A stretch of DNA of 64,000 nt from Alphaproteobacteria bacterium. Its GTDB lineage: Bacteria > Pseudomonadota > Alphaproteobacteria > SHVV01. Under the pieces are notes generated by a model. The model was not told where the DNA came from and made no database searches. It was given only the letters and a program-made list of their open reading frames with translations. How positions within the stretch are numbered: the first letter of the stretch is position 1; each line of letters starts with the position of its first letter. Location of the stretch: NCBI GenBank assembly GCA_965261735.1, contig OZ253470.1, positions 2,816,001 through 2,880,000 of the forward strand, in the 5' to 3' direction. Of the stretch, positions 3,296 through 57,468 are shown in pieces. The position numbers and the translations under genes are program-made.

Positions 3296-3298
3296 GCC

Positions 3299-4357
3299 AT
3301 GCGCTGGCCCTGGCAACGCCACGAGACCCGCGAATCGATCGGCGGCTATACCGAGATCATCAGCCGTCTAGTCGAGGCGCAGGCGGCCGGGACAACCCAG
3401 CTCGCGAGCGCGACCGCGGCGACCGAGGCGACCGCGGGGCTCCTATCGAGATCATTTGCCGCGGCGACGGTCGAGGGGCCGGGCGACGTCGCCGGGATCG
3501 TGACGCCGCGATGCTTGGCTCAAGTCGGCCGCGACCTGATTCGCGTCGGCGAGTCGCTGCATGTTCTCCGCTACATGGGCGGCCGTCTGCTGCTGATCCC
3601 GGCCTCAACGTGGTACTGGGAAGGCAACGCGGACCCGGCCACCTGGCTATGCACGGCGACGGCCTACGGGCCAAGCGGATCGAGCACATGGCGCGTTCCG
3701 CAATCGTCGGTCGTGTTCGTCACCTGGGGATCGCCGACCGCCCGCCCCTATCACGGACTCTCGCCGTCAAGCTGGGCGGCCGATACCGCCCGCTTGAATG
3801 CGAACACCGAGCGCAGTCTGGCGGATGAGGCCAGCGGACCAGTCGCCCAACTATTGCCGGTGCCGCAAGACGGCGGCGACGGAGGCGACGACGATCCCCT
3901 CACCTCGTTAAAGAGCGACATCAAAGCGGCGCGTGGCAAGGCGCTGTTGGTCGAGACGGTCAACGCCGGTTGGGGCGAAGGGAAGCCCGCCGCCCCGCAA
4001 TCCGATTGGAAGCAACAACGGCTTGGGCCTGCACCGACCGAGGCCATGGTCAAGCTTGCCGAGGCGGCGTTTGATCGCGTGCTAGCCGCGTCGGGCTGTT
4101 CACCGGCGCTGTTTGACGATAGCGACGGGACCAGCAAGCGCGAGGCGCTGAGGCAATGGCACCTTGGCGTCGTCATGCCGCTGGCCCGACAGATTGAGCA
4201 TGAGTTGACGGCGAAGCTCGAAACCGACGTGCGGCTTCGCTTTGACTTGTACAACACCGATCTCGCGGGCCGGGCCCAGGCGTTTCAAAAGCTGGTCGCG
4301 GGCGGCGTGGGCGTCATGGACGCACTCACGACAACCGGGCTCTTGGCCGATGACTAA
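3299..4357 (+). CDS. Phage portal protein (short HK97-like)
   Basis: 352 aa with 'DLIRVGESL', 'PYHGLSP', '[17 protein letters not shown]' and '[13 protein letters not shown]', motifs typical of HK97-family portals. Confidence 0.8.
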
Positions 4358-4775
4358 GCCGTGCTCGGTTGGGGGCTGCGAGCAGCCCGTGACGGCGCAG
4401 GGCCGCTGCGATACTCATTACCGCGGCGCCCGCCGAGCCGGTGAAATTGGGATCGTTCGACCGCGCAACCCCGGCATCTGTTCTATCGACGCCTGCGAGC
4501 GCTCAAAAAAGTGTCGCGGTTTGTGCGCGTATCACTACAAACGATGGTGGCTTTGGGGCGATCCCCTGGTGCCGTTGCGCCCTCTTCTGCGGTTTTCGGA
4601 CGAGGACCTCCGCAGGATGCACGAACATCTCGACGGCATACCGCCAGGCCGACGCGCCGAACAAGGGGAGGTGATCTTTCTTGCCTTGATCCTTGGGCGG
4701 GAGCCGCGCGCGGTGCATCGAAAACTTTGCGACTTGAGGGTGGAGCGGCGGGAAGCTCAAGCCGCTCTGAGCTGA
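4350..4775 (+). CDS. Hypothetical protein with two C-x4-C-x7-G-x-C-x2-HY Zn-binding repeats and a C-terminal HTH-like segment
   Basis: ATG at 4350 overlaps the portal end. Repeats [20 protein letters not shown] and [20 protein letters not shown]. Confidence 0.65.
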
Positions 4776-4804
4776 AAAGGGGGACATCATGCCCCCCCCT
4801 TTTT
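4775..4804 (+). terminator. Intrinsic (probably bidirectional) terminator
   Basis: AAAAGGGGG-ACATCATG-CCCCCCCC-TTTTT directly after the last element gene. Confidence 0.7.
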
Positions 4805-4866
4805 GCCTACATAGTGCCTACATGGCGCTTATACCGCGTTGACTAAGTTCCTCTAAGTCATTGAAA
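4804..4866. promoter_or_regulatory. Putative integrase arm-type sites and IHF-like site at the att junction
   Basis: Direct repeat TGCCTACAT-AG-TGCCTACAT (4804-4823). TAAGTCATTGAAA (4854-4866) matches WATCAANNNNTTR on the minus strand with one mismatch. Both lie just outside the tRNA 3' end. Confidence 0.55.
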
Positions 4867-4870
4867 AGCA

Positions 4871-4945
<75 letters not shown>

Positions 4946-5107
4946 GCCGGCGGGGCCGGGAGATGTCGGCCGCTGCTTTCGCGCCCCGCTCCATCGCGGG
5001 CGGCGACCCTCGCGCTGCCCGCGCGTCCCCCTTTGCCAAATACTGCTATCCTTCACAAGCCTTTTCTGCCGCCGGCACGCGGCCGGGACGTGGAGGAGCC
5101 GCGCACG

Positions 5108-5830
5108 ATGACGCCGCCCCAGGCCCCGCAGGGGCGTGCGCGCTGGCTGGTCGCGCTCGCGGCCGCCGCGGCAATCGCCGCACTCGTTATCTTCCTCGTG
5201 TTCCGCTTCCCGGGCGCGCTTACGGGGCGCGGCGAACGCGCGAGCCTCGTCTACGGGCTGTTGCTGCTGGTGCTCGTCGGCGGCAGCCTGCTGCTGCGCT
5301 GGCATGGACGGCCGATGTTTGCTGTGCGCCACGCGCTCATCTGGCTCGGCATCGCGCTGCTGCTGCTGATCGGCTACAGCTTTCGCGCCGATCTCGCGCT
5401 CAATCCCCACATCGACCGGGTGTTCGGCGAGCTCGTCCCGTTCTCGGCGCAGGTTGGTGCAGACGGCGCGCTCAGCGTGCGCGCGGCGCGCGACGGCCAC
5501 TACTACATCGAGGCCCGCATCGACGACCGCCCCGTGCGCTTCCTGGTCGATACCGGCGCCTCCGACGTGATCCTGCGGCCGTGGGATGCGCGCGAGTTGG
5601 GTTACGACCTCGCCCGCCTGTCCTTCACCCGCCCGTTCGAGACCGCGGGCGGGCCGGTGCGGGGCGCCGCCGTGCGGCTCGGCCGCTTCACCATCGGCGG
5701 GCTCGAATTCCCCGAGGTGAACACCTGGGTGAGCAGCGAGCCGATGGGCCATTCGTTGCTCGGCATGAGCTTTCTCGCCCGCCTCGAGGCCTACGAGTTT
5801 CGCGACGATACGCTGACGCTGCGGCCCTGA
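5108..5830 (+). CDS. Membrane-anchored retropepsin-like (clan AA, TIGR02281-type) aspartic protease
   Basis: Three N-terminal hydrophobic helices, DGHY, FLVDTGAS and SLLGMSFL motifs; start chosen at the ATG after GGAGG. Confidence 0.9.
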   Translation: MTPPQAPQGRARWLVALAAAAAIAALVIFLVFRFPGALTGRGERASLVYGLLLLVLVGGSLLLRWHGRPMFAVRHALIWLGIALLLLIGYSFRADLALNPHIDRVFGELVPFSAQVGADGALSVRAARDGHYYIEARIDDRPVRFLVDTGASDVILRPWDARELGYDLARLSFTRPFETAGGPVRGAAVRLGRFTIGGLEFPEVNTWVSSEPMGHSLLGMSFLARLEAYEFRDDTLTLRP

Positions 5831-21152: not shown

Positions 21153-21968
21153 GGGCGGTGATCCATACGGCGGCGCGCGATGTCGGCGCGCGCCCATCCT
21201 AGTGGATTGATCGGAACGAAAGAGTCCGATTTGAGATTCCGTATTGTGCGGTGTCATGCGAGTCTGTGCTATGCGCACCGGCATCCATTTTACTGTCACG
21301 TCTGGCGACCGTCAGCGATTGCAAGCTATCGTCGCGGACCCGAAGAGCTCGCAGAAACATGTCTGGCGGGCGCGGATCATCCTGAAGAGCGACGAGGGGC
21401 TCGGGAACTCGTCGATCATGGCCGAGACCGGCAAGTCCAAGACCTGTGTCTGGCGCTGGCAGGAGCGGTTCATGCACGAGGGTGTCAACGGCTTGCTTCG
21501 CGACAGGTCCCGTCCGCCTGGCAAAGCGCCGATCCCGCCGGAGCGCGTCGCCGAGATCGTCCGCCTGACCCAGCAAGCGCCGCCGCACGAGGCGACCCAC
21601 TGGACGCTGCGCGCGATGGCGAAGGTTGCTGGCGTCGCGGCGTCGACGGTCCAAGCGATCTGGAAGGCCCATGGCCTCAGCCCGCACCGCTGGCGGCACT
21701 TCAAGCTCTCCAATGATCCCGCCTTCGCCGAGAAGCTCACAGATATCGTCGGCTTGTATGTCGATCCGCCGGCCCATGCCGTGGTGCTGTCGGTTGATGA
21801 GAAATCACAGATCCAGGCGCTCGACCGCACCCAACCCGGCTTGCCGATGAAGAAGGGCCGCGCCGGTACGATGACCTATGATTACAAAGGGAATTATATA
21901 TTTAATTATACCAAACCCTTGTAATTGCCCGTGGTACAACTATGTTATAGATAGTAGGAGGCCGGACC

Positions 21969-24172: not shown

Positions 24173-24782
24173 CTCCGCAATGTCTTAATAGAGACACTAC
24201 CAAACACTGGTACAACTAGGTATATAATTCCCATTACAAACGGCATGGCACGACGACGCTGTTCGCCGCGCTCAACGTGCTGGACGGTACGGTCATCGCA
24301 CAGAACATGCAGCGCCACCGCCATCAGGAGTTCATCCGCTTCCTCAACCGCATCGAGCGCGAGGTGCCGACGGACAAGGCCGTCCACGTCATCCTCGACA
24401 ACTACGCCGCGCACAAGAAGGACAAGGTCCGCGCCTGGCTCGCCCGCCATCCACGCTGGACCTTCCACTTCACGCCAACCTCGTGCTCGTGGCTCAATGC
24501 CGTCGAGGGCTTCTTCGCCAAACTAACGCGGCGCAGGCTCAAATACGGCGTCTTCCAATCCGTCGTCGACCTTCAGGCCGCCATCAACCGATTTGTCCGC
24601 GAATACAATGACGCAAACCCAAAACCCTTCATCTGGAAAGCCGACCCCGATCATATCATCGCCGCACGAAACAGAGGGTTCCAAACGTTGGAATCAATCC
24701 ACTAGCGCCATCAGCGCCGCCGCTCCACGCGCTTGTCGGATCACCCATTCGACACGGCGTGCGCCTTGGGCTAGACCGAGGC

Positions 24783-34999: not shown

Positions 35000-37900
35000 T
35001 CAGCCGACGATCAGGCCGCGAACGTGACGGTTGGCGATGGCGAGGCGCGCAACGTCGATGCCGCCGGCGCTGCGAAAGGACGCCATCAAGTCGGCGCTGC
35101 GGGCCACCACGGCGGCATTGTCGGCCTCCCACTTGGCCAGCGCCGCGTCGCCTGCCGCGCAGTCGGCGCCATCGAAAACGCGGCTCGTGAGCGCGCGCTG
35201 CTGGCCGTAGAAGTCCTCCAGGATGGCGCTGATGGCGCGCCGTTCCCAGGGTGAATCGGGCGCCAGCTGCTCGGCTTCCGCGCGCAGCCAGTCGAGCCCG
35301 AGGCGCGCGCCGAGCGCGAAGTAGACGCGCGCCACCTCGGCGACCGAGCGGCCGCCGAGCCGCGCCACCTCGACCACGTGGCAGGCCGCCGCCAGGGTAT
35401 CGAGCCGCGCCACGCGGCGCGCGAGGTCGGCCGGCACACCCTCGCCGCGTAGCCCGGCACTGCGCTGCTCGAGACCGACCGCCTCGAATTCGCTGATGAC
35501 GCCATCGAGCACCGCGTCCACGGCCGCGATGCCGGGCGCCAGCTGCGCGATCGTGCCCGCGATGTCGAGCGGCGCGCGGCGGTTGCGCAGGTACCACTCT
35601 GTCGAGCGGTGGATGAGCTGCATGACCTCGCCGAACATGCGCACCTGCAGCGCCGCCGGGACCTTGTTGTCGAGCGCCTCGATCGCGAGCCACAGCGGGC
35701 GCAGGGCGAAGGCATCGCGCGTGAGGGTGTAGGCGCGGGCGATGTCGGCGGCCGCCGCACCGGTTTCCTCAACGAGGTCGCTGACGAATGTCGGCCCGGC
35801 ACGGTTGACGATGCTGTTGGCGACGACCGTGGCGACGATTTCGCGGCGCAGGCGATGGCCCGCCAGCGCCGGCGCGAAGCGCTTGCGCAGCGCGCGCGGA
35901 AAATACAGGGCGAGGTCGTTGGCGAAGTACGGGTCTTCGGGAACGTCGCTGGCCGTGAGCGCGTCGAACAAGGTGATCTTGCTATAGGACACGAGGACGG
36001 AGATTTCCGGGCGCGTAAGGCCGCGGCCGGCCGCCTGACGCTCGGCGACCGCCTCCTCGTCGGGTAGGAACTCTATGGCCCGGTCGAGCGCTCCGGCGCG
36101 CTCCAGGGTATGCATCAGGCGCGCCTGGGCATCGAGGCCGGCGACATCTTCGGCCTCGCACACCGAGATCGCCTGCGCCTGCAGGTAGTTGTCGCGCAGC
36201 ACCAGATCGCCGACCTCGTCGGTCATGCGCGCGAGCAGCCGGTTGCGCTGACCCGCCACCAGCGAGCGGTCGGCGATGGCGCCGTTGAGCAGGATCTTGA
36301 TGTTGACCTCGTGATCGGAGCAATCGACGCCCGCGGAGTTGTCGACGAAGTCGGTGTTGACCCGGCCCCCGCCGAGCGCGAATTCGATGCGGCCGCGCTG
36401 GGTGATGCCTAGGTTGGCGCCCTCGCCTATCACCCGGCAGCGCAACGCCCGGGCGTCGATGCGCAATCCGTCGGTGGCGCGGTCGCCGGCGTCGGCGTCG
36501 CTCTCGGCCACGGCCTTGACATAGGTCCCGATGCCGCCGAACCACAGCAAATCGACGGACGCCTTGAGGAGGGCCCGGATCAGGTCGGCCGGCGTCAGGC
36601 TGTCGGCCTCGAGATCGAAAGTGCGCTTGATCTCGGGCGAGAGCTTGATCGACGTCGCCGCTCGGTCGAACACGCCACCGCCCTTGGAGATCAGCGCGGG
36701 CTTGTAGTTGCTCCACGATGACCGCGGCAGCGCGAACAGCCGCTTGCGCTCGGCGTAGCTCTTTTTCGCATCCGGATCGGGATCGACGAAGATGTGCTGG
36801 TGGTTGAAGGCGGCGACGAGCCTGATGTGCGGCGACAGCAACATGCCGTTGCCGAACACGTCGCCCCCCATATCGCCGATGCCGACCACGCTGAACGGCG
36901 TGGTTTAGGTATCGAGCCCAAGCTCGCGGAAGTGGCGCTTGACCGATTCCCAGGCGCCGCGCGCGGTGATTCCCATCCGTTTGTGGTCGTAGCCGGCCGA
37001 CCCGCCCGAGGCGAACGCATCGCCGAGCCAGAACCCGTACGCCTGCGACACGTCGTTGGCGATGTCGGAGAACGTCGCCGTGCCCTTGTCGGCGGCGACG
37101 ACGAGGTAGGGGTCATCCTCGTCGTGGCGGACGACATCGCGGGGCGGCGCGATCGCGCCCTCGACGAGGTTGTCGGTCAGGTCGAGGAGCCCGCTCATGA
37201 ACGTGACGTAGGAGGCGATGACTTCGTTCTGGATCGCTTGCCGGTCATCGGTCGCGGGCAGGCGCTTGGTCACGAACCCGCCCTTCGAGCCGACCGGCAC
37301 GATGACCGAGTTCTTGACCATCTGCGCCTTCATCAGGCCGAGCACCTCGGTGCGGAAGTCCTCGCGCCGGTCGGACCAGCGGATGCCGCCGCGCGCGATC
37401 CTGCCAGCGAAGGATACGGTCCTCGTCGAGGTTCGCGACGGCCTCGAGTTGGGCGTCGATAGCGACGAGCAATCGGCTCGCGCGGCGCCCCGAGGTTTGG
37501 GCCTGGGCCGGATCGAAGCGGGCGTGGAACAGCTTGACCAGATTCCGCGAGATGGCGGGATGGCCGCACAGGGTGTCCTCGAGGTAGCGCGGACTGAAGG
37601 GAATGTTGGCTTGATGCAAATACTTGGCGTAGGCCCTGAGCACGACGACGTCGCGCCACTCGAGGCCGGCCCGGAACACGAGTCCGTTGAAGCGATCGTC
37701 CTCAACCTCGCCGCGCCATATCCGCAATACCGCGTCCTCGAACTTCGCGGCGGTGGCGGCCAGGTCGGGCATCTCGCCATCCGGAGCGGCGACCTCGAAA
37801 TCATGAATCCATATTGGCGGCCGAGCGTTGCCGCGGTTAACGCGGTAGGGCCACTCGTAGAGGACCCGGAGCCCCATGTGCTCGAGCACCGGTAGCGAAT

Positions 37901-39667
37901 CCGATAGCGCCACCGGCTTCTCCGGATGGTAGATCTTGAAGCGCACCGCCCTTTCTTCGGGGTGCCGCGCCGCGTACAGGTGAACGCCGACCTCATCGAT
38001 ACCACCGAGACCTTCGATCTTGTCGATGTCGAGCACCGCGTTAGCGGCGTCGAAGACCTCGCGGTAGGCCGTGGGAAAGGCCTCGCCATAGAGCGCGGTA
38101 AGCCTCCTACCCTCGACCGCGCCGTGGCGGTCGATGAGCGCGTCTTCCAGATCCTCGCGCCATGTGCGGGCCGCGGCGACGAGTTTGGCCTCGAGCGCGG
38201 CGACATTGGGCTCGGCTGTATCGCTCGGGGTGCGCCCGATGATGAAGTGCAGGCGGGCCAAGGCGTCGTCGCCGATCTGTGTCGAGAAGGCCGAGTTGCG
38301 GCCGCGAAACGCCTCCGCCAGGATCGCCTCGAAGCGCCTGCGGAGCGCGGTCGTATGCTGCTCGCGGGGCACGAAAACGAGGCAGGAGGCAAAGCGCTTG
38401 AAGCGGTCCGAGCGGACGAACAGCCGGATGCGCGGCCGTTCGCTGAGGTGCAGGATGCCGGTCGCCGCCTCGTACAGCTCGTCCTCGGAGATCTGCAGAA
38501 GCTCGTCGCGGGGAAACGTCTCCAGGATGTGGAGCAGCGCCTTACCGGCATGGCTCGTGGCGCCGAGACGCGAGCGTTCGACCACGTGCCGCACCTTACG
38601 CCGCAAGACCGGAATACTGGACGGGCTCATGCTGTACGCGGTCGAGGTGAACAGGCCGATGAAGCGGTGCTCGCCTATCGCGCGGCCCTGGGCGTCGAGG
38701 CTCTTCACGCCGACGTAATCCATGTGGACCGCCCGGTGTACCGTGCTGCGCACGCTCGTCTTGGTGATGTGAAGCAGCGCCGGCTGCTTTAGGAAGTGGC
38801 GAATCTCCGGCGGCAGGTCGGTAAGACGGCGGGGGGGGGGTCCGAGGACGTGCACCCGGGGATCACGTAGCAGGCCCTTGCCGGAGTCCTTGACCGGCGC
38901 GAACAGGGCCTCGCGCCCGTGGTCGCGCAGATCGAATTCGCGATAGCCGAGAAGCGTGAAGTTGTCGTCCTTCATCCACGCGAGGAAGGCCTTGGCCTCG
39001 GCCATCTCGGCGGCGTCGATCATGGGGGGGGGCCAGACTCGAGGGTCGCGATGGCGTCGTCGAGCTCGCCCAGCATGGGCCGCCAATCCGCGACCACCGC
39101 GCGTACATTGGCGAGCGACTTGTCGAGGTCCGCAACCAGAGACTCGCGCGCCTCGGGCGCCGCCTGATGGTCGATGCCGATATGCATCCATGACTCTTGT
39201 ATCGACGAATCGCTGCCGGCCGAGGGCGCCGGTGCGGCACGCAGGAGCTTGATCTTGCCCTGAGCGGCCCTCTCGACTAGCAGGACCGGATGAACGACAA
39301 AATGCGTGGCGACGCCGGCCCGCGCCACGGCCATGGTCACCGAGTCGACGAGGAACGGCATGTCGTCGTGGATGATCTCGACGATCGTGTGCGATGAGGA
39401 CCACCCGTCGATCCGTGGGTCCGGATCGTAGGCCCTGATCTTTGCCCGGCCGGGCATCCGCTTCTGGCCGAACCGCCACAGCGAACGGGCGGCGCCGTAC
39501 AGGGTTTCGCTCGACTGGCTGGCAATGTCCTCGGGTGCCACGTGCTGGCAGTACTGGCGCGCGAAGGCCTCGAACTCGCCCCCGCGGCCCTTGCCGGCCT
39601 CGCGCCGAAGGCGTCGGATAACCTCGGCGATGCGGCGCTGCTTAAGCGCTTCGGGCCTGACTACCAT
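35000..39667 (-). pseudogene. gdhB: Large NAD-specific glutamate dehydrogenase (GdhB/GdhZ type), disrupted
   Basis: [45 protein letters not shown] and DNSAGVDCSDHEVNIK are spread over four ORFs. Lesions: frameshift at G9 (39024-39032), deletion plus frameshift near 37405, TAA at 36905-36907. Confidence 0.92.
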
Positions 39668-39857
39668 GTCGATGGTTCCCGCCGCGCCGTCTCGCCGGCC
39701 CTAGCGATCCCGCCGGGAACGGGCGGGCTCCGGCACAGGGCGCTGCGTGTCGACACCGCCCGAAGGCGCGCAGCGCGATGTTGGGCGGTCCGTCAACCCC
39801 GTTCGCGCGGAAGGGCTGCGGCGGGCGCCAAGCGCCCTAGCCACTCACGCCGAGGGC

Positions 39858-41210: not shown

Positions 41211-41412
41211 AATGAGTTCTCCCTTGCTCAGTTGATAATGGGGCGCCGCCGGGTGCGAGGCCGCTCGCCGTCATACCCCCCGTGGGTCAACGGCTTATTG
41301 GTGAAGCGAACGTTTGCCGCGGGCCAGGTCGCCACGGCGGCGCCGAGTGTAACAGGATTGCGAGGCCGAACGCGGCGGGATTACAACCGTGCTTTGGGGG
41401 TGAAAACGAGCC

Positions 41413-42651
41413 ATGCCCAGCGAGAGACTCACCTTTACCGGCGCCGCCGGGGCGGCGCTCGATGCCCGGCTCGACCTACCCGAAGGCGCGCCCCGGGCGT
41501 TCGCGCTGTTCGCGCATTGCTTCACGTGCTCGAAGGACAGGCTGGCCGCTGCGCGCATCGCCCGCGGGCTAGCCGGCGTGGGCGTGGCGACCCTACGCTT
41601 CGACTTCACCGGGCTTGGCGGTAGCGAGGGCGACTTCGCCAACACTGGATTCTCCTCCAACATCGACGACCTGGTCGCGGCCGCCGACCACCTGCGCCGC
41701 CACTACCGGGCGCCGGCACTCCTGGTCGGGCACAGCCTCGGCGGTACGGCGGTGCTCGCCGCCGCCCAACGCATACCCGAGGCGCGCTGCATCGCAACCA
41801 TCGCCGCGCCGGCCGAGCCTGCGCACGTGCGCCACTTGCTCGCACCCGCGGTGCCGGCGATCACGGCCCAGGGCGCGGCCGAGGTCGAGATCGGCGGGCG
41901 CCATTTCACCATCGCCCAGAGTTTCCTTGACGACATCGCGGCGCACGACGTGACGGCGGAACTCGCCACCCTCGAGAAAGCCCTCCTCGTCTTCCATGCC
42001 CCCGGCGACGATACGGTCGGCATCGACAACGCGACCCGTATCTTCGTCGCCGCGCGCCACCCCAAGAGCTTCGTCTCGCTCGACGATGCCGATCACCTGT
42101 TGACGCGGCGCGAGGATGGTGCCTACGTCGCCTCGGTGTTGGCGGCCTGGGCCGCGCGCTATGTCGGTGAGCCGGAGCCCGAACTCGCGCCCGCGCCCGA
42201 GCGGCTTGACCCGGGCACGGTGTTGGTCGAGGAGGCGGGCGGCGCGAAGCTCGTTCAGCGTGTTCGTGCCGGGCCCCACCTGCTTGCCGCCGACGAGCCG
42301 CGCGAGCACGGCGGCACCGATGCCGGCCCCTCGCCCTACGATCTGCTGCTCGCGGCCCTCGGCACTTGCACCACGATGACGCTGCGCCTCTACGCCGAAC
42401 GCAAGGGGTGGCCGCTCGAGAGGGCGGGCGTGGCGCTGCGCCACAACAAGGTCCACGCCACCGACTGCGCCGAGTGCGAGACGAGGGAGGGCCGGATCGA
42501 TCGCATCGAGCGCGATGTCACGCTCGACGGGCCGCTAAGCGCCGAGCAGCGCGCGCGCATGCTCGAAATAGCCGACAAATGCCCGGTCCATCGTACGCTC
42601 AAATCGGAGATCGACATCCGCACCCGGCTGGCCGAGGGGACCGTGGGCTAG
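41413..42651 (+). CDS. Bifunctional alpha/beta hydrolase-OsmC family protein
   Basis: FAHCFTCSK and GHSLGG, then ADEP...GPSPYDLL..LGTCT and ADKCPVHRTL. Confidence 0.93.
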   Translation: MPSERLTFTGAAGAALDARLDLPEGAPRAFALFAHCFTCSKDRLAAARIARGLAGVGVATLRFDFTGLGGSEGDFANTGFSSNIDDLVAAADHLRRHYRAPALLVGHSLGGTAVLAAAQRIPEARCIATIAAPAEPAHVRHLLAPAVPAITAQGAAEVEIGGRHFTIAQSFLDDIAAHDVTAELATLEKALLVFHAPGDDTVGIDNATRIFVAARHPKSFVSLDDADHLLTRREDGAYVASVLAAWAARYVGEPEPELAPAPERLDPGTVLVEEAGGAKLVQRVRAGPHLLAADEPREHGGTDAGPSPYDLLLAALGTCTTMTLRLYAERKGWPLERAGVALRHNKVHATDCAECETREGRIDRIERDVTLDGPLSAEQRARMLEIADKCPVHRTLKSEIDIRTRLAEGTVG

Positions 42652-55509: not shown

Positions 55510-56871
55510 ATGCGGGTACGCTGCGGCAAGCTGTTCACCGGCCTCGAGGACGAGGCCAGGTCCGATCAGACGCTCCTCATCGACGACGGCCGTATCACCT
55601 TCGTGGGGCCGAGCGCGGACGCGCCGGCCAATGGCGAGGAGGCTCTCGATCTCTCGAACGCCTTCGTGATTCCGGGACTGATCGATGCCCACACCCACTT
55701 GGCCTTCGGCAACGCCCAGGGCCTCGAGGACGTCGACCTCTATTCGGCGCTCGAATTCCGCGCGCTCCGCGGGCTCATCAACGCGCAGCGCGTACTGACG
55801 ACGGGGCATACGGCTTTCATCGATCCCGGCTCCTCGGGCCGCGTCTCGCTGTCGGTGCGCGATGCCATCGATGCGGGCCTGTTTACGGGGCCGCGCATCG
55901 CCTGCTCGGGGCCGTTCATCGGCAACCGGCAGGGCTTCACCTCCTTCTACCCGACCTGGTTCACCAACCCGACGGCGGTGTGCGATCTGGTTAAAAGCAC
56001 CGACGAGGCAGTCGAGACGATCCGCCGCCAGGTCAAGGACGGGGTCGACTTCATCAAGATAGCGCTCGACGGCCGGGTCATGAACGGCGACGGCGAGCTC
56101 TCGGCCGCCTTCGACGAGGCCACCATTAAGCGGCTGATCGACGAGTGCCACCGCTTGGGGCGCAAGGTCATTGGGCACGCACGCGGCCGCGAAGCCGCGC
56201 TCTTTGGTGCGCGCTCGGGCACCGACGTCCTCTATCACGTCTCGTGGATCGGCGACGACGTGATAGAGGCGGCGCTCAAGAGCGGCTCCTATTTCTGTCC
56301 CTCGATGACGATCACCCACAACCGCTTCAGCTTCGCGCAGTCGAGCGATCCGGCCACGCGCAAGGGCGACTTCGGCGCCTCCGAATGGGCGGCCTCGACG
56401 ATGTGGGCGCGGCGCGCCTATGAAGCCGGGGTACCCCTCATGGCCGGCACCGATTCGGGCTTCGCCTCGGACCCGTGCGGCGAGTGGCACGCGCGCGAGA
56501 TGGAGATCCTGGTCAAGTACATCGGCCTCACCCCGGCGCAGGCGCTACGAGCCGCGACCTCGGTCAACGCCACCTTCTTCGGTGACGCGGACGGCGCGGG
56601 CGCCGATTTCGGGGCGCTCGAGGCGGGCCGCCTCGCCGACTTCGTGGTCGTCGACGGCGATCCGCTCGAGGACATCTCGATCTTGCTCGACAAGTCGGCA
56701 ATCCGCGCGGTTTACCTCGCGGGCGAGCGCGTGGAGGTATCGCCGCCGCCGATCCACGCCGAGGCCGAGACCGCCTTCTCCTACCGCTTCTGGCAGGACA
56801 CCTACGACCAGAAACGCGTCGCCGAGCTGCGCGGCGACGGCGGAGCGGAGTCCCACATCCGGGCGATCTGA
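55510..56871 (+). CDS. Metal-dependent amidohydrolase (Xaa-Pro dipeptidase-like subfamily)
   Basis: PGLIDAHTH, DFIKI, GHA, AGTDSG and GRLADFVVVDGDPL motifs. Confidence 0.9.
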   Translation: MRVRCGKLFTGLEDEARSDQTLLIDDGRITFVGPSADAPANGEEALDLSNAFVIPGLIDAHTHLAFGNAQGLEDVDLYSALEFRALRGLINAQRVLTTGHTAFIDPGSSGRVSLSVRDAIDAGLFTGPRIACSGPFIGNRQGFTSFYPTWFTNPTAVCDLVKSTDEAVETIRRQVKDGVDFIKIALDGRVMNGDGELSAAFDEATIKRLIDECHRLGRKVIGHARGREAALFGARSGTDVLYHVSWIGDDVIEAALKSGSYFCPSMTITHNRFSFAQSSDPATRKGDFGASEWAASTMWARRAYEAGVPLMAGTDSGFASDPCGEWHAREMEILVKYIGLTPAQALRAATSVNATFFGDADGAGADFGALEAGRLADFVVVDGDPLEDISILLDKSAIRAVYLAGERVEVSPPPIHAEAETAFSYRFWQDTYDQKRVAELRGDGGAESHIRAI

Positions 56872-56877
56872 GAGGGC

Positions 56878-57330
56878 CTAGCCGAGGCTCCTCAGGTCGG
56901 CGAGCACCTCGTCGGGGTGGTCGGCGGGTTTGACGGTTGCGTAGGCCTTGGCGATCTTGCCGTCGGGGGCGATGAGTACGGAGACGCGGGTCGGGACCCG
57001 CGAGTCGGCCTCGGCGGCGCCGTAGGCGATCGAGGTCGCCTTCGTCTCGTCGCTCAGCAGATCGAAGGGGAAGCTGGACTTCTCGCGGAACGCCTTGTTG
57101 GCCCCGGTCGTATCGAAGCTGATCCCGAGTACGGCGGTATTGAGTCCTTCGAAGTCCTGGATTCGATCACGGAATCCCTTGCCCTCGATGGTTCACCCAG
57201 GTGTGTCGGCCTTGGGGTACCACCACAGGAGCACGTAGCGGCCGGAGAAGTCGTCCGACTTCACCGCTGCCCCATCCTGATTGCTGAGCTCGAAGCTCGG
57301 CGCTCGTTGGCCCACGTCGATCAGCGCCAT
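56878..57330 (-). CDS. bcp: Peroxiredoxin (BCP/PrxQ), probable selenoprotein (Sec46); missed by ORF track
   Basis: Manual translation: MALIDVGQRAPSFELSNQDG...WWYPKADTPG[TGA 57193-57195]TIEGKGFRD...FPFDLLSD...RVSVLIAPDGKI...HPDEVLADLRSLG*. TGA sits at the peroxidatic Cys of the YPKxxTPGCT motif and the frame stays open for 104 more codons. Confidence 0.9.
57159..57177 (-). promoter_or_regulatory. Candidate bacterial SECIS hairpin
   Basis: Starts 15 nt after the UGA: GGAUUC-CGUGAUC-GAAUCC, a perfect 6-bp stem built from codons (GGA, CGT, CGA) that are unusual in the surrounding genes. Confidence 0.6.
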
Positions 57331-57468
57331 GCCATCCCCCTTTTGCGCCCCTTATGTGACCCTCGACTATAGCACATAGCGGCGAGGTGTCCGATGGAAC
57401 GCGGCTCGCCGGCCACGCTATGATGCCTCCCCGGACCAGCGCCCAGGCGTTCGAGCCAGGAGGCGAAC

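Follow-up and report, generated by a model that had tools for sequence, protein, structure and literature searches.

The minus strand of the 64-kb stretch of alphaproteobacterial DNA analyzed here (64,000 nucleotides, hereafter called the window) carries a gene that very probably encodes a BCP/PrxQ-type thiol peroxidase with selenocysteine (Sec) as its peroxidatic residue. Judged by its own sequence and those of its relatives, it is almost certainly a genuine Sec-peroxiredoxin gene, and Sec decoding in the genome to which the window belongs is probable.

A Cys-free peroxiredoxin with an in-frame TGA at the peroxidatic position

A first-pass annotation, made from the letters of this DNA, had described a 150-codon minus-strand gene missing from the ORF track, a lone in-frame TGA at its peroxidatic position (YPKADTPG-U-TIEG), a protein without any Cys and hence without a resolving Cys, and a 6-bp hairpin 15 nt after the TGA. 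Each of these descriptions was borne out (Table 1). Translated with TGA as U, the frame gives 150 residues, none of them Cys; codon 46 is its only in-frame TGA and stands in the residue context WWYPKADTPG-U-TIEGKGFRDRIQDF, and the 104 codons 3' of it stay open. The hairpin reads GGATTC-CGTGATC-GAATCC. Under translation table 11, the only ORF at the locus is one of 45 amino acids (57193..57330), and therefore a standard ORF track misses the gene. Consensus scans of the flanks yielded a weak sigma-70-like promoter match (9/12 consensus positions; 1 site versus 0.1 expected) and a weak terminator-like hairpin, which is placed past the end of the full-length frame rather than past the TGA.

Table 1 Features of the Sec-peroxiredoxin locus and of the broken glutamate dehydrogenase gene in the window
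Feature	Position	Strand	Remarks
Sec-peroxiredoxin CDS (150 residues)	57330..56878	minus	ATG at 57330, TAG at 56880..56878; translated with TGA=U
In-frame TGA, codon 46	57195..57193	minus	Proposed Sec codon, at the peroxidatic position of PxxxTxxC/U (P39, T43, U46)
SECIS core hairpin	57159..57177	minus	6-bp stem GGAUUC/GAAUCC, 7-nt loop CGUGAUC; overlaps codons G52-F-R-D-R-I-Q58
Possible extended SECIS	57149..57188	minus	Lower helix, 57188..57183 with 57154..57149, under the core hairpin; modest support
Shine-Dalgarno-like AGGGGGA	57335..57341	minus	4 nt upstream of ATG; putative, read from the sequence
Sigma-70-like promoter match (CGGACA, 16 nt, TG-TATAGT)	57366..57393	minus	Consensus scan; weak
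Terminator-like GC-rich hairpin	56817..56839	minus	About 40 nt past TAG; consensus scan; weak, poor T tract
NAD-GDH ACT1	39700..39023	minus	First frame
NAD-GDH HM1, ACT2, HM2, ACT3, HM3	About 38615..37508	minus	Second frame
NAD-GDH catalytic domain	From about 37408	minus	First frame again; in-frame TAA at 36905..36907 inside

The encoded protein is a BCP/PrxQ-like peroxiredoxin, the family to which the first-pass annotation had assigned it. It matches Pfam AhpC-TSA (PF00578) at 5e-32, with 110.9 bits against a cutoff of 26 and coverage of profile positions 1 to 123 of 124. Its best PDB sequence matches are Bcp/PrxQ chains (3drn at 3e-21). In alignment with the PDB Bcp chains, residue 46 falls on their active-site position. 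An AlphaFold model computed from a 55-sequence alignment (mean pLDDT, 95.3) gave Foldseek TM scores of 0.89 to 0.92 against Bcp1, Bcp4, BcpB, and PrxQ structures and places residue 46 in the first turn of a helix spanning residues 44 to 55. The peroxiredoxin motif PxxxTxxC is present as P39-T43-U46. P39, T43, and R115 do not vary across the 55 aligned sequences, and by analogy we take R115 to be the catalytic Arg. The resolving Cys that atypical 2-Cys members of the BCP family carry at position +5 or in helix 3 is missing, as is any other Cys in the protein, a state compatible with the 1-Cys type of BCP.

At the level of curated subfamilies, the best NCBIfam models for the protein are Bcp and PrxQ. 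Two narrower identities were rejected: the score for the Bcp equivalog model (NF006960) is 108.7 bits, below its cutoff of 140, so that the protein is not assigned as an Escherichia coli-type Bcp equivalog, and the score for the clostridial Sec-peroxiredoxin model PrxU (NF040737) is 52.3 bits, below a cutoff of 270.

TGA and Cys codons share the catalytic position among relatives

A scan of genome contigs yielded 80 related loci that were kept for comparison, the window's own genome not being among them. At the codon homologous to codon 46, 23 of these 80 loci (L001 to L021, L023, and L024) have TGA, 57 have TGC or TGT, and TGG is absent. The first-pass annotation had named Cys/TGA pairing among homologs as a check, and these counts display such pairing at one and the same codon. 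It had also weighed the opposite case, in which close homologs all carry TGC or TGT. That case does not hold, as TGA occupies the codon in all 21 of the nearest genome homologs among the 80 loci kept (L001 to L021). The MAGs that contribute the TGA loci are labeled Alphaproteobacteria, Rhodospirillaceae, Woeseiaceae, Gammaproteobacteria, Immundisolibacterales, Verrucomicrobiales, Phycisphaerae, Gemmatimonadetes, SAR324, and Marinacidobacterales.

The two forms also differ next to the active site. Most Cys forms read C-T-x-[EQ]-[AG]-C, with a Cys at +5 in 49 of 57, while the Sec forms inspected at that position display N, K, Q, or R, the sole exception being L023, which retains the Cys (U-T-A-E-G-C).

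A quick IQ-TREE maximum-likelihood tree of 81 sequences (the 80 loci and the window) places the window gene as sister to L017, a locus from a Rhodospirillales MAG (SH-aLRT, 96), and nests it within a 22-row set made up entirely of Sec forms (SH-aLRT, 96). The window protein matches all 54 of the columns that are at least 90% conserved in 54 relatives. The all-Sec clade and the intact conserved columns together indicate that the TGA is ancestral and not a fresh nonsense mutation. Between the window and L017, identity is 70% for PurH and 68% for the peroxiredoxin, values compatible with vertical descent of the pair. In L017 (10001-12370), the Sec-peroxiredoxin gene is directly followed by purH on the opposite strand; the window has its purH at a distance of 24 kb.

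A second pair of Sec forms, L023 and L024 (position 10130 in each; Marinacidobacterales MAGs), falls among the Cys forms in the same quick tree and has the same hairpin core as the other Sec forms. Their position could reflect a second Cys-to-Sec conversion or the transfer of a Sec segment.

A hairpin with frozen codons follows the TGA in every Sec form

An ungapped alignment of the 24 Sec forms (the 23 loci and the window) revealed a 19-nt hairpin, GGRUUC-CGYGAYM-GAAUCC, that is kept in 24/24. All six stem pairs are kept in 24/24 as well, one of them alternating between G.U (18 sequences) and A-U (6 sequences). The SECIS-like hairpin that the first-pass annotation had noticed downstream of the UGA is hence a common property of the Sec forms, and the codons that build it are specific to them. 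Across codons +6 to +12, which encode G-F-R-D-R-I-Q, the Sec forms use GGR in 24/24, TTC in 24/24, CGT in 22/24, GAT in 20/24, CGA or AGA (MGA) in 24/24, and ATC in 24/24. Just upstream, residues that are as highly conserved (P, A, D, T, P, and G) are each encoded by three or four codons, and the Cys forms use ordinary codons at the hairpin sites (CGC in 43/56 and TTT in 23/40).

The same codons stand out against the background of the window, which is 68% GC. Over 8060 codons from Pfam-supported window genes, GGA makes up 2.9%, CGT 5.4%, CGA 1.4%, and GAT 28.7% of the usage for their own amino acids, and the seven hairpin codons have a joint probability of 4.4e-6 under this usage. The earlier remark that the hairpin is written in codons unusual for a GC-rich region is thereby upheld, GGA, CGT, CGA, and GAT all being minority codons. 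The hairpin motif occurs only once in the whole window.

For bacterial SECIS elements, the legend of Fig. 2 in PMC13188914 gives a loop of 3 to 9 nt, an upper stem of 4 to 16 bp, a G within the first two loop positions, a distance of 16 to 37 nt from UGA to the loop, and a minimum free energy (MFE) of at most -7.5 kcal/mol. The window hairpin has a loop of 7 nt, a stem of 6 bp, a G at loop position 2, and a UGA-to-loop distance of 21 nt; the MFE is -12.6 kcal/mol for the 40-nt element and -5.2 kcal/mol for the core hairpin alone. The longer element includes a lower helix in which 77.8% of cells are paired across the 24 sequences, with one covarying pair (UA in 8, CG in 6, GU in 3, and unpaired in 7), a pattern no more than suggestive of an extended SECIS. 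RNAalifold recovered only the invariant 6-bp stem, with 0 compensatory pairs; covariation is nearly absent because the stem itself is invariant.

Judged on one sequence, the hairpin does not exceed chance. The single-sequence fold of 71 nt has a z score of -0.48, which is not significant, and of 1287 TGA triplets counted across the window, 289 (22%) are followed by a hairpin of at least 6 bp that fits the bSECIS rules for loop, spacing, and G. It is the conservation across relatives that exceeds chance. Rfam, run on the whole window at the gathering threshold, returned only tRNA-Thr and no curated bacterial SECIS model, and a permissive Rfam scan (E <= 10) of 56800..57450 returned nothing.

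Sec machinery, other selenoprotein candidates, and the host

Neither ARAGORN nor Rfam found a tRNA-Sec in the 64-kb window, and Pfam found no SelA, SelB, or SelD domain among its 58 GC3-filtered ORFs. Because the window contains none of these components, we infer Sec decoding in the host only indirectly. The surroundings of the 23 Sec-form loci gave a similar picture: ARAGORN detected no tRNA-Sec in them, its sole find being one tRNA-Met, and NCBIfam detected no SelA, SelB, or SelD among 237 flanking ORFs of at least 200 amino acids (120 at E <= 1e-40 and 117 at E <= 1e-70), a set that ORFs shorter than 200 amino acids or split by a Sec-UGA would escape. A crude screen of the window for in-frame TGA with coding-like GC3 on both sides produced three hits, namely, the peroxiredoxin, the genuine stop of the glutamate dehydrogenase gene at 35002, and an unsupported site at 1680, and hence no plausible second candidate. 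The wider selenoproteome predicted by the first-pass annotation finds no support within these 64 kb.

The same annotation had taken the DNA to be alphaproteobacterial, which fits the named relatives of the window's PurH. At 71 to 74% identity, these are Azospirillum, Nitrospirillum, and Emcibacter-like organisms (names beginning Azos-, Nitr-, Emci-, Olei-, and Aren-), and they support a Rhodospirillales-like origin within the Alphaproteobacteria. Some Rhodospirillales are documented to have the Sec trait, and in Alphaproteobacteria selC can be nested within selB (PMC8124441). FdhA, the usual selenoprotein of the class, is the only one listed for cultured Alphaproteobacteria in a 2006 survey (PMC1794560). 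The host lineage is less typical for the Sec-Prx family.

Other features of the window

The gene for a large NAD-specific glutamate dehydrogenase (NAD-GDH; 39700..35003, minus strand) is broken by two frame changes, and its domains are spread over two frames (Table 1). It is either a pseudogene or the product of an assembly error, and therefore pseudogenes or sequence/assembly errors do occur in the window. On the plus strand, two ORFs about 2.3 kb apart (21235-21921 and 24220-24702) carry HTH domains and a DDE_3 transposase domain; they could be pieces of one broken transposase, which suggests an interrupted or degraded insertion sequence. A phage portal-like ORF (3296-4354) has as neighbors a tRNA-Thr gene (4871-4945, minus strand) and an ORF whose product carries a retropepsin-like aspartyl protease domain (4865-5827); the region 3296-5827 is a possible prophage remnant next to a tRNA gene. 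A plus-strand ORF at 41404-42648 fuses an alpha/beta-hydrolase to an OsmC-like peroxidase domain without any in-frame TGA and is another putative peroxide-defense gene in the window.

Alternative readings of the in-frame TGA

The gene might descend from a true Sec-peroxiredoxin in a lineage that has since lost its Sec machinery, in which case the UGA would now stop translation at 45 residues and the rest would be a young pseudogene. The lack of Sec machinery and of a second selenoprotein candidate within the window agrees with such a history, as do the breaks in the NAD-GDH gene (two frameshifts and a TAA) and the presence of insertion sequence fragments. In a window of 64 kb, however, missing sel genes mean little, and the part of the frame beyond the TGA shows no sign of decay, with 104 open codons and a match at 54/54 conserved columns. 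Moreover, four minority codons in the hairpin (GGA, CGT, GAT, and CGA) have been kept despite the pressure on GC3 at 68% GC, where drift would erode them. We therefore regard a decaying relic as unlikely and a functional Sec-peroxiredoxin gene as the better reading.

A still less probable account lets the UGA be read outside the Sec pathway, through reassignment of TGA to Trp or Gly or through near-cognate read-through with Trp or Cys. It draws on the composition of protein databases: among the 120 best database proteins, the catalytic site is W in 78 and C in 37, and the motif is missing in 5 (4 that begin no earlier than the site and 1 with an unrelated N terminus). At face value, the 78 W-type proteins have Trp at the site. 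TGG is found there in none of the 80 genome loci, however, and for this reason we read the W as mistranslated UGA, most likely the outcome of applying a TGA=Trp table to short metagenome contigs. In addition, Trp in place of the peroxidatic residue would abolish catalysis by established peroxiredoxin chemistry, and the conserved downstream hairpin is a signature of SelB-dependent decoding. An alternative genetic code can be rejected outright: TGA ends 17 of the 29 Pfam-supported ORFs in the window, meaning that it is a normal stop and that genome-wide reassignment does not apply. Reading of the UGA outside the Sec pathway is thus very improbable. Of the 78 W-type database relatives, taken here as Sec forms, 18 are also Cys-free, and for this reason the Cys-free state is considered recurrent in the clade.

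A recent nonsense mutation or sequencing error that turned TGC or TGT into TGA in a Cys-peroxiredoxin gene would take a single base, and it could appeal to the closest database protein (P0002, 69% identity), which has Cys at the site, and to the in-frame stop in another window gene, but it is effectively refuted by the position of the window gene inside an all-Sec clade of 22 together with L001 to L021, by a Sec-specific hairpin whose frozen codons are complete in the window, and by the lack of the +5 resolving Cys that 49 of 57 Cys forms possess.

Relation to known peroxiredoxins

The Sec reading makes the window gene a member of the known Sec-Prx family (TxxU, COG1225/PF00578) of marine bacteria, which has been known since 2005. 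Published tallies for this abundant family include 43 genes in the Sargasso Sea data (PMC1088965), 253 genes in GOS (PMC2398784), and, as listed for sequenced organisms, 91 selenoproteins in 78 of them (PMC5029168); Sec-Prx with the PxxxTxxU motif is also among the entries of a 2026 review (PMC13188914). The window gene shares with it the Pfam family, the T43-P-G-U46 segment within P39xxxT43xxU46, the pairing of UGA with Cys, and a SECIS directly downstream with G in a small apical loop. No defining feature differs, and the assignment is based on motif, COG/Pfam membership, and relatives of the same habitat type.

The Cys-type BCP/PrxQ proteins, such as E. coli Bcp, Xanthomonas PrxQ, and Sulfolobus Bcp1 and Bcp4, resemble the window protein in fold, active-site motif, and length. 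They differ from it in that the window protein has Sec in place of the peroxidatic Cys and no resolving Cys anywhere. PrxU, reportedly described by Sohling et al. in 2001 as the Sec-peroxiredoxin of Eubacterium acidaminophilum, is likewise a peroxiredoxin with Sec from UGA at the peroxidatic position, but it belongs to another Prx subfamily, and the window protein has 150 amino acids versus the 233 positions of the PrxU profile (NF040737).

Proposed mechanism

In the established bacterial pathway, as outlined in PMC13188914, SelB bound to Sec-tRNASec recognizes the SECIS hairpin and delivers Sec at the UGA. By extension, UGA codon 46 of the window gene would be read as Sec, with the hairpin whose loop lies 21 nt downstream acting as a bacterial SECIS that recruits SelB-GTP-Sec-tRNASec to the ribosome. 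Where SelB is not recruited, translation would stop at the UGA after 45 residues.

Peroxidase activity is predicted for the full-length product. The Sec46 selenolate, which presumably owes its placement at the head of helix 44-55 to T43 and R115, would attack the peroxide and become a selenenic acid. Because the window protein has no Cys, Sec46 would have to be recycled directly by an external thiol, either a thioredoxin-type or a glutaredoxin/glutathione-type reductant, in a "1-Sec" mechanism.

A possible Sec-peroxiredoxin cassette

The SECIS core, with the peptide that it encodes, is identical in Sec-PrxQ genes of MAGs labeled with at least 7 phylum-level groups: Pseudomonadota, Verrucomicrobiota, Planctomycetota, Gemmatimonadota, Acidobacteriota, SAR324, and unclassified bacteria. 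A tblastn search of nine window neighbors against the 80 loci revealed no conserved neighborhood. Unrelated neighborhoods and the mixing of phyla in the tree suggest that the gene might travel horizontally as a cassette. On this more speculative proposal, to which we give a low probability, the 19-nt SECIS core and the GFRDRIQ segment that it encodes would form one unit, a self-contained, horizontally spreading "Sec-peroxiredoxin cassette" in which the RNA signal may dictate the protein sequence and in which the members without Cys may depend on an external reductant for a strict one-selenium catalytic cycle.

Implications

Recognition of the Sec-peroxiredoxin gene mends a gap in annotation, as a functional antioxidant enzyme would otherwise be called a 45-residue fragment or be missed altogether. 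A related problem affects protein collections, in which gene callers that use a TGA=Trp table have apparently left mistranslated selenoproteins. The finding marks a Rhodospirillales-like alphaproteobacterium as a probable selenium user, and it offers a clean case of synonymous sites frozen by an RNA signal within a coding region, across many phyla. If the cassette proposal were true, these genes would lend themselves, as a natural system, to the study of SECIS constraints on protein evolution and of the recognition of one hairpin by the SelB proteins of distant phyla.
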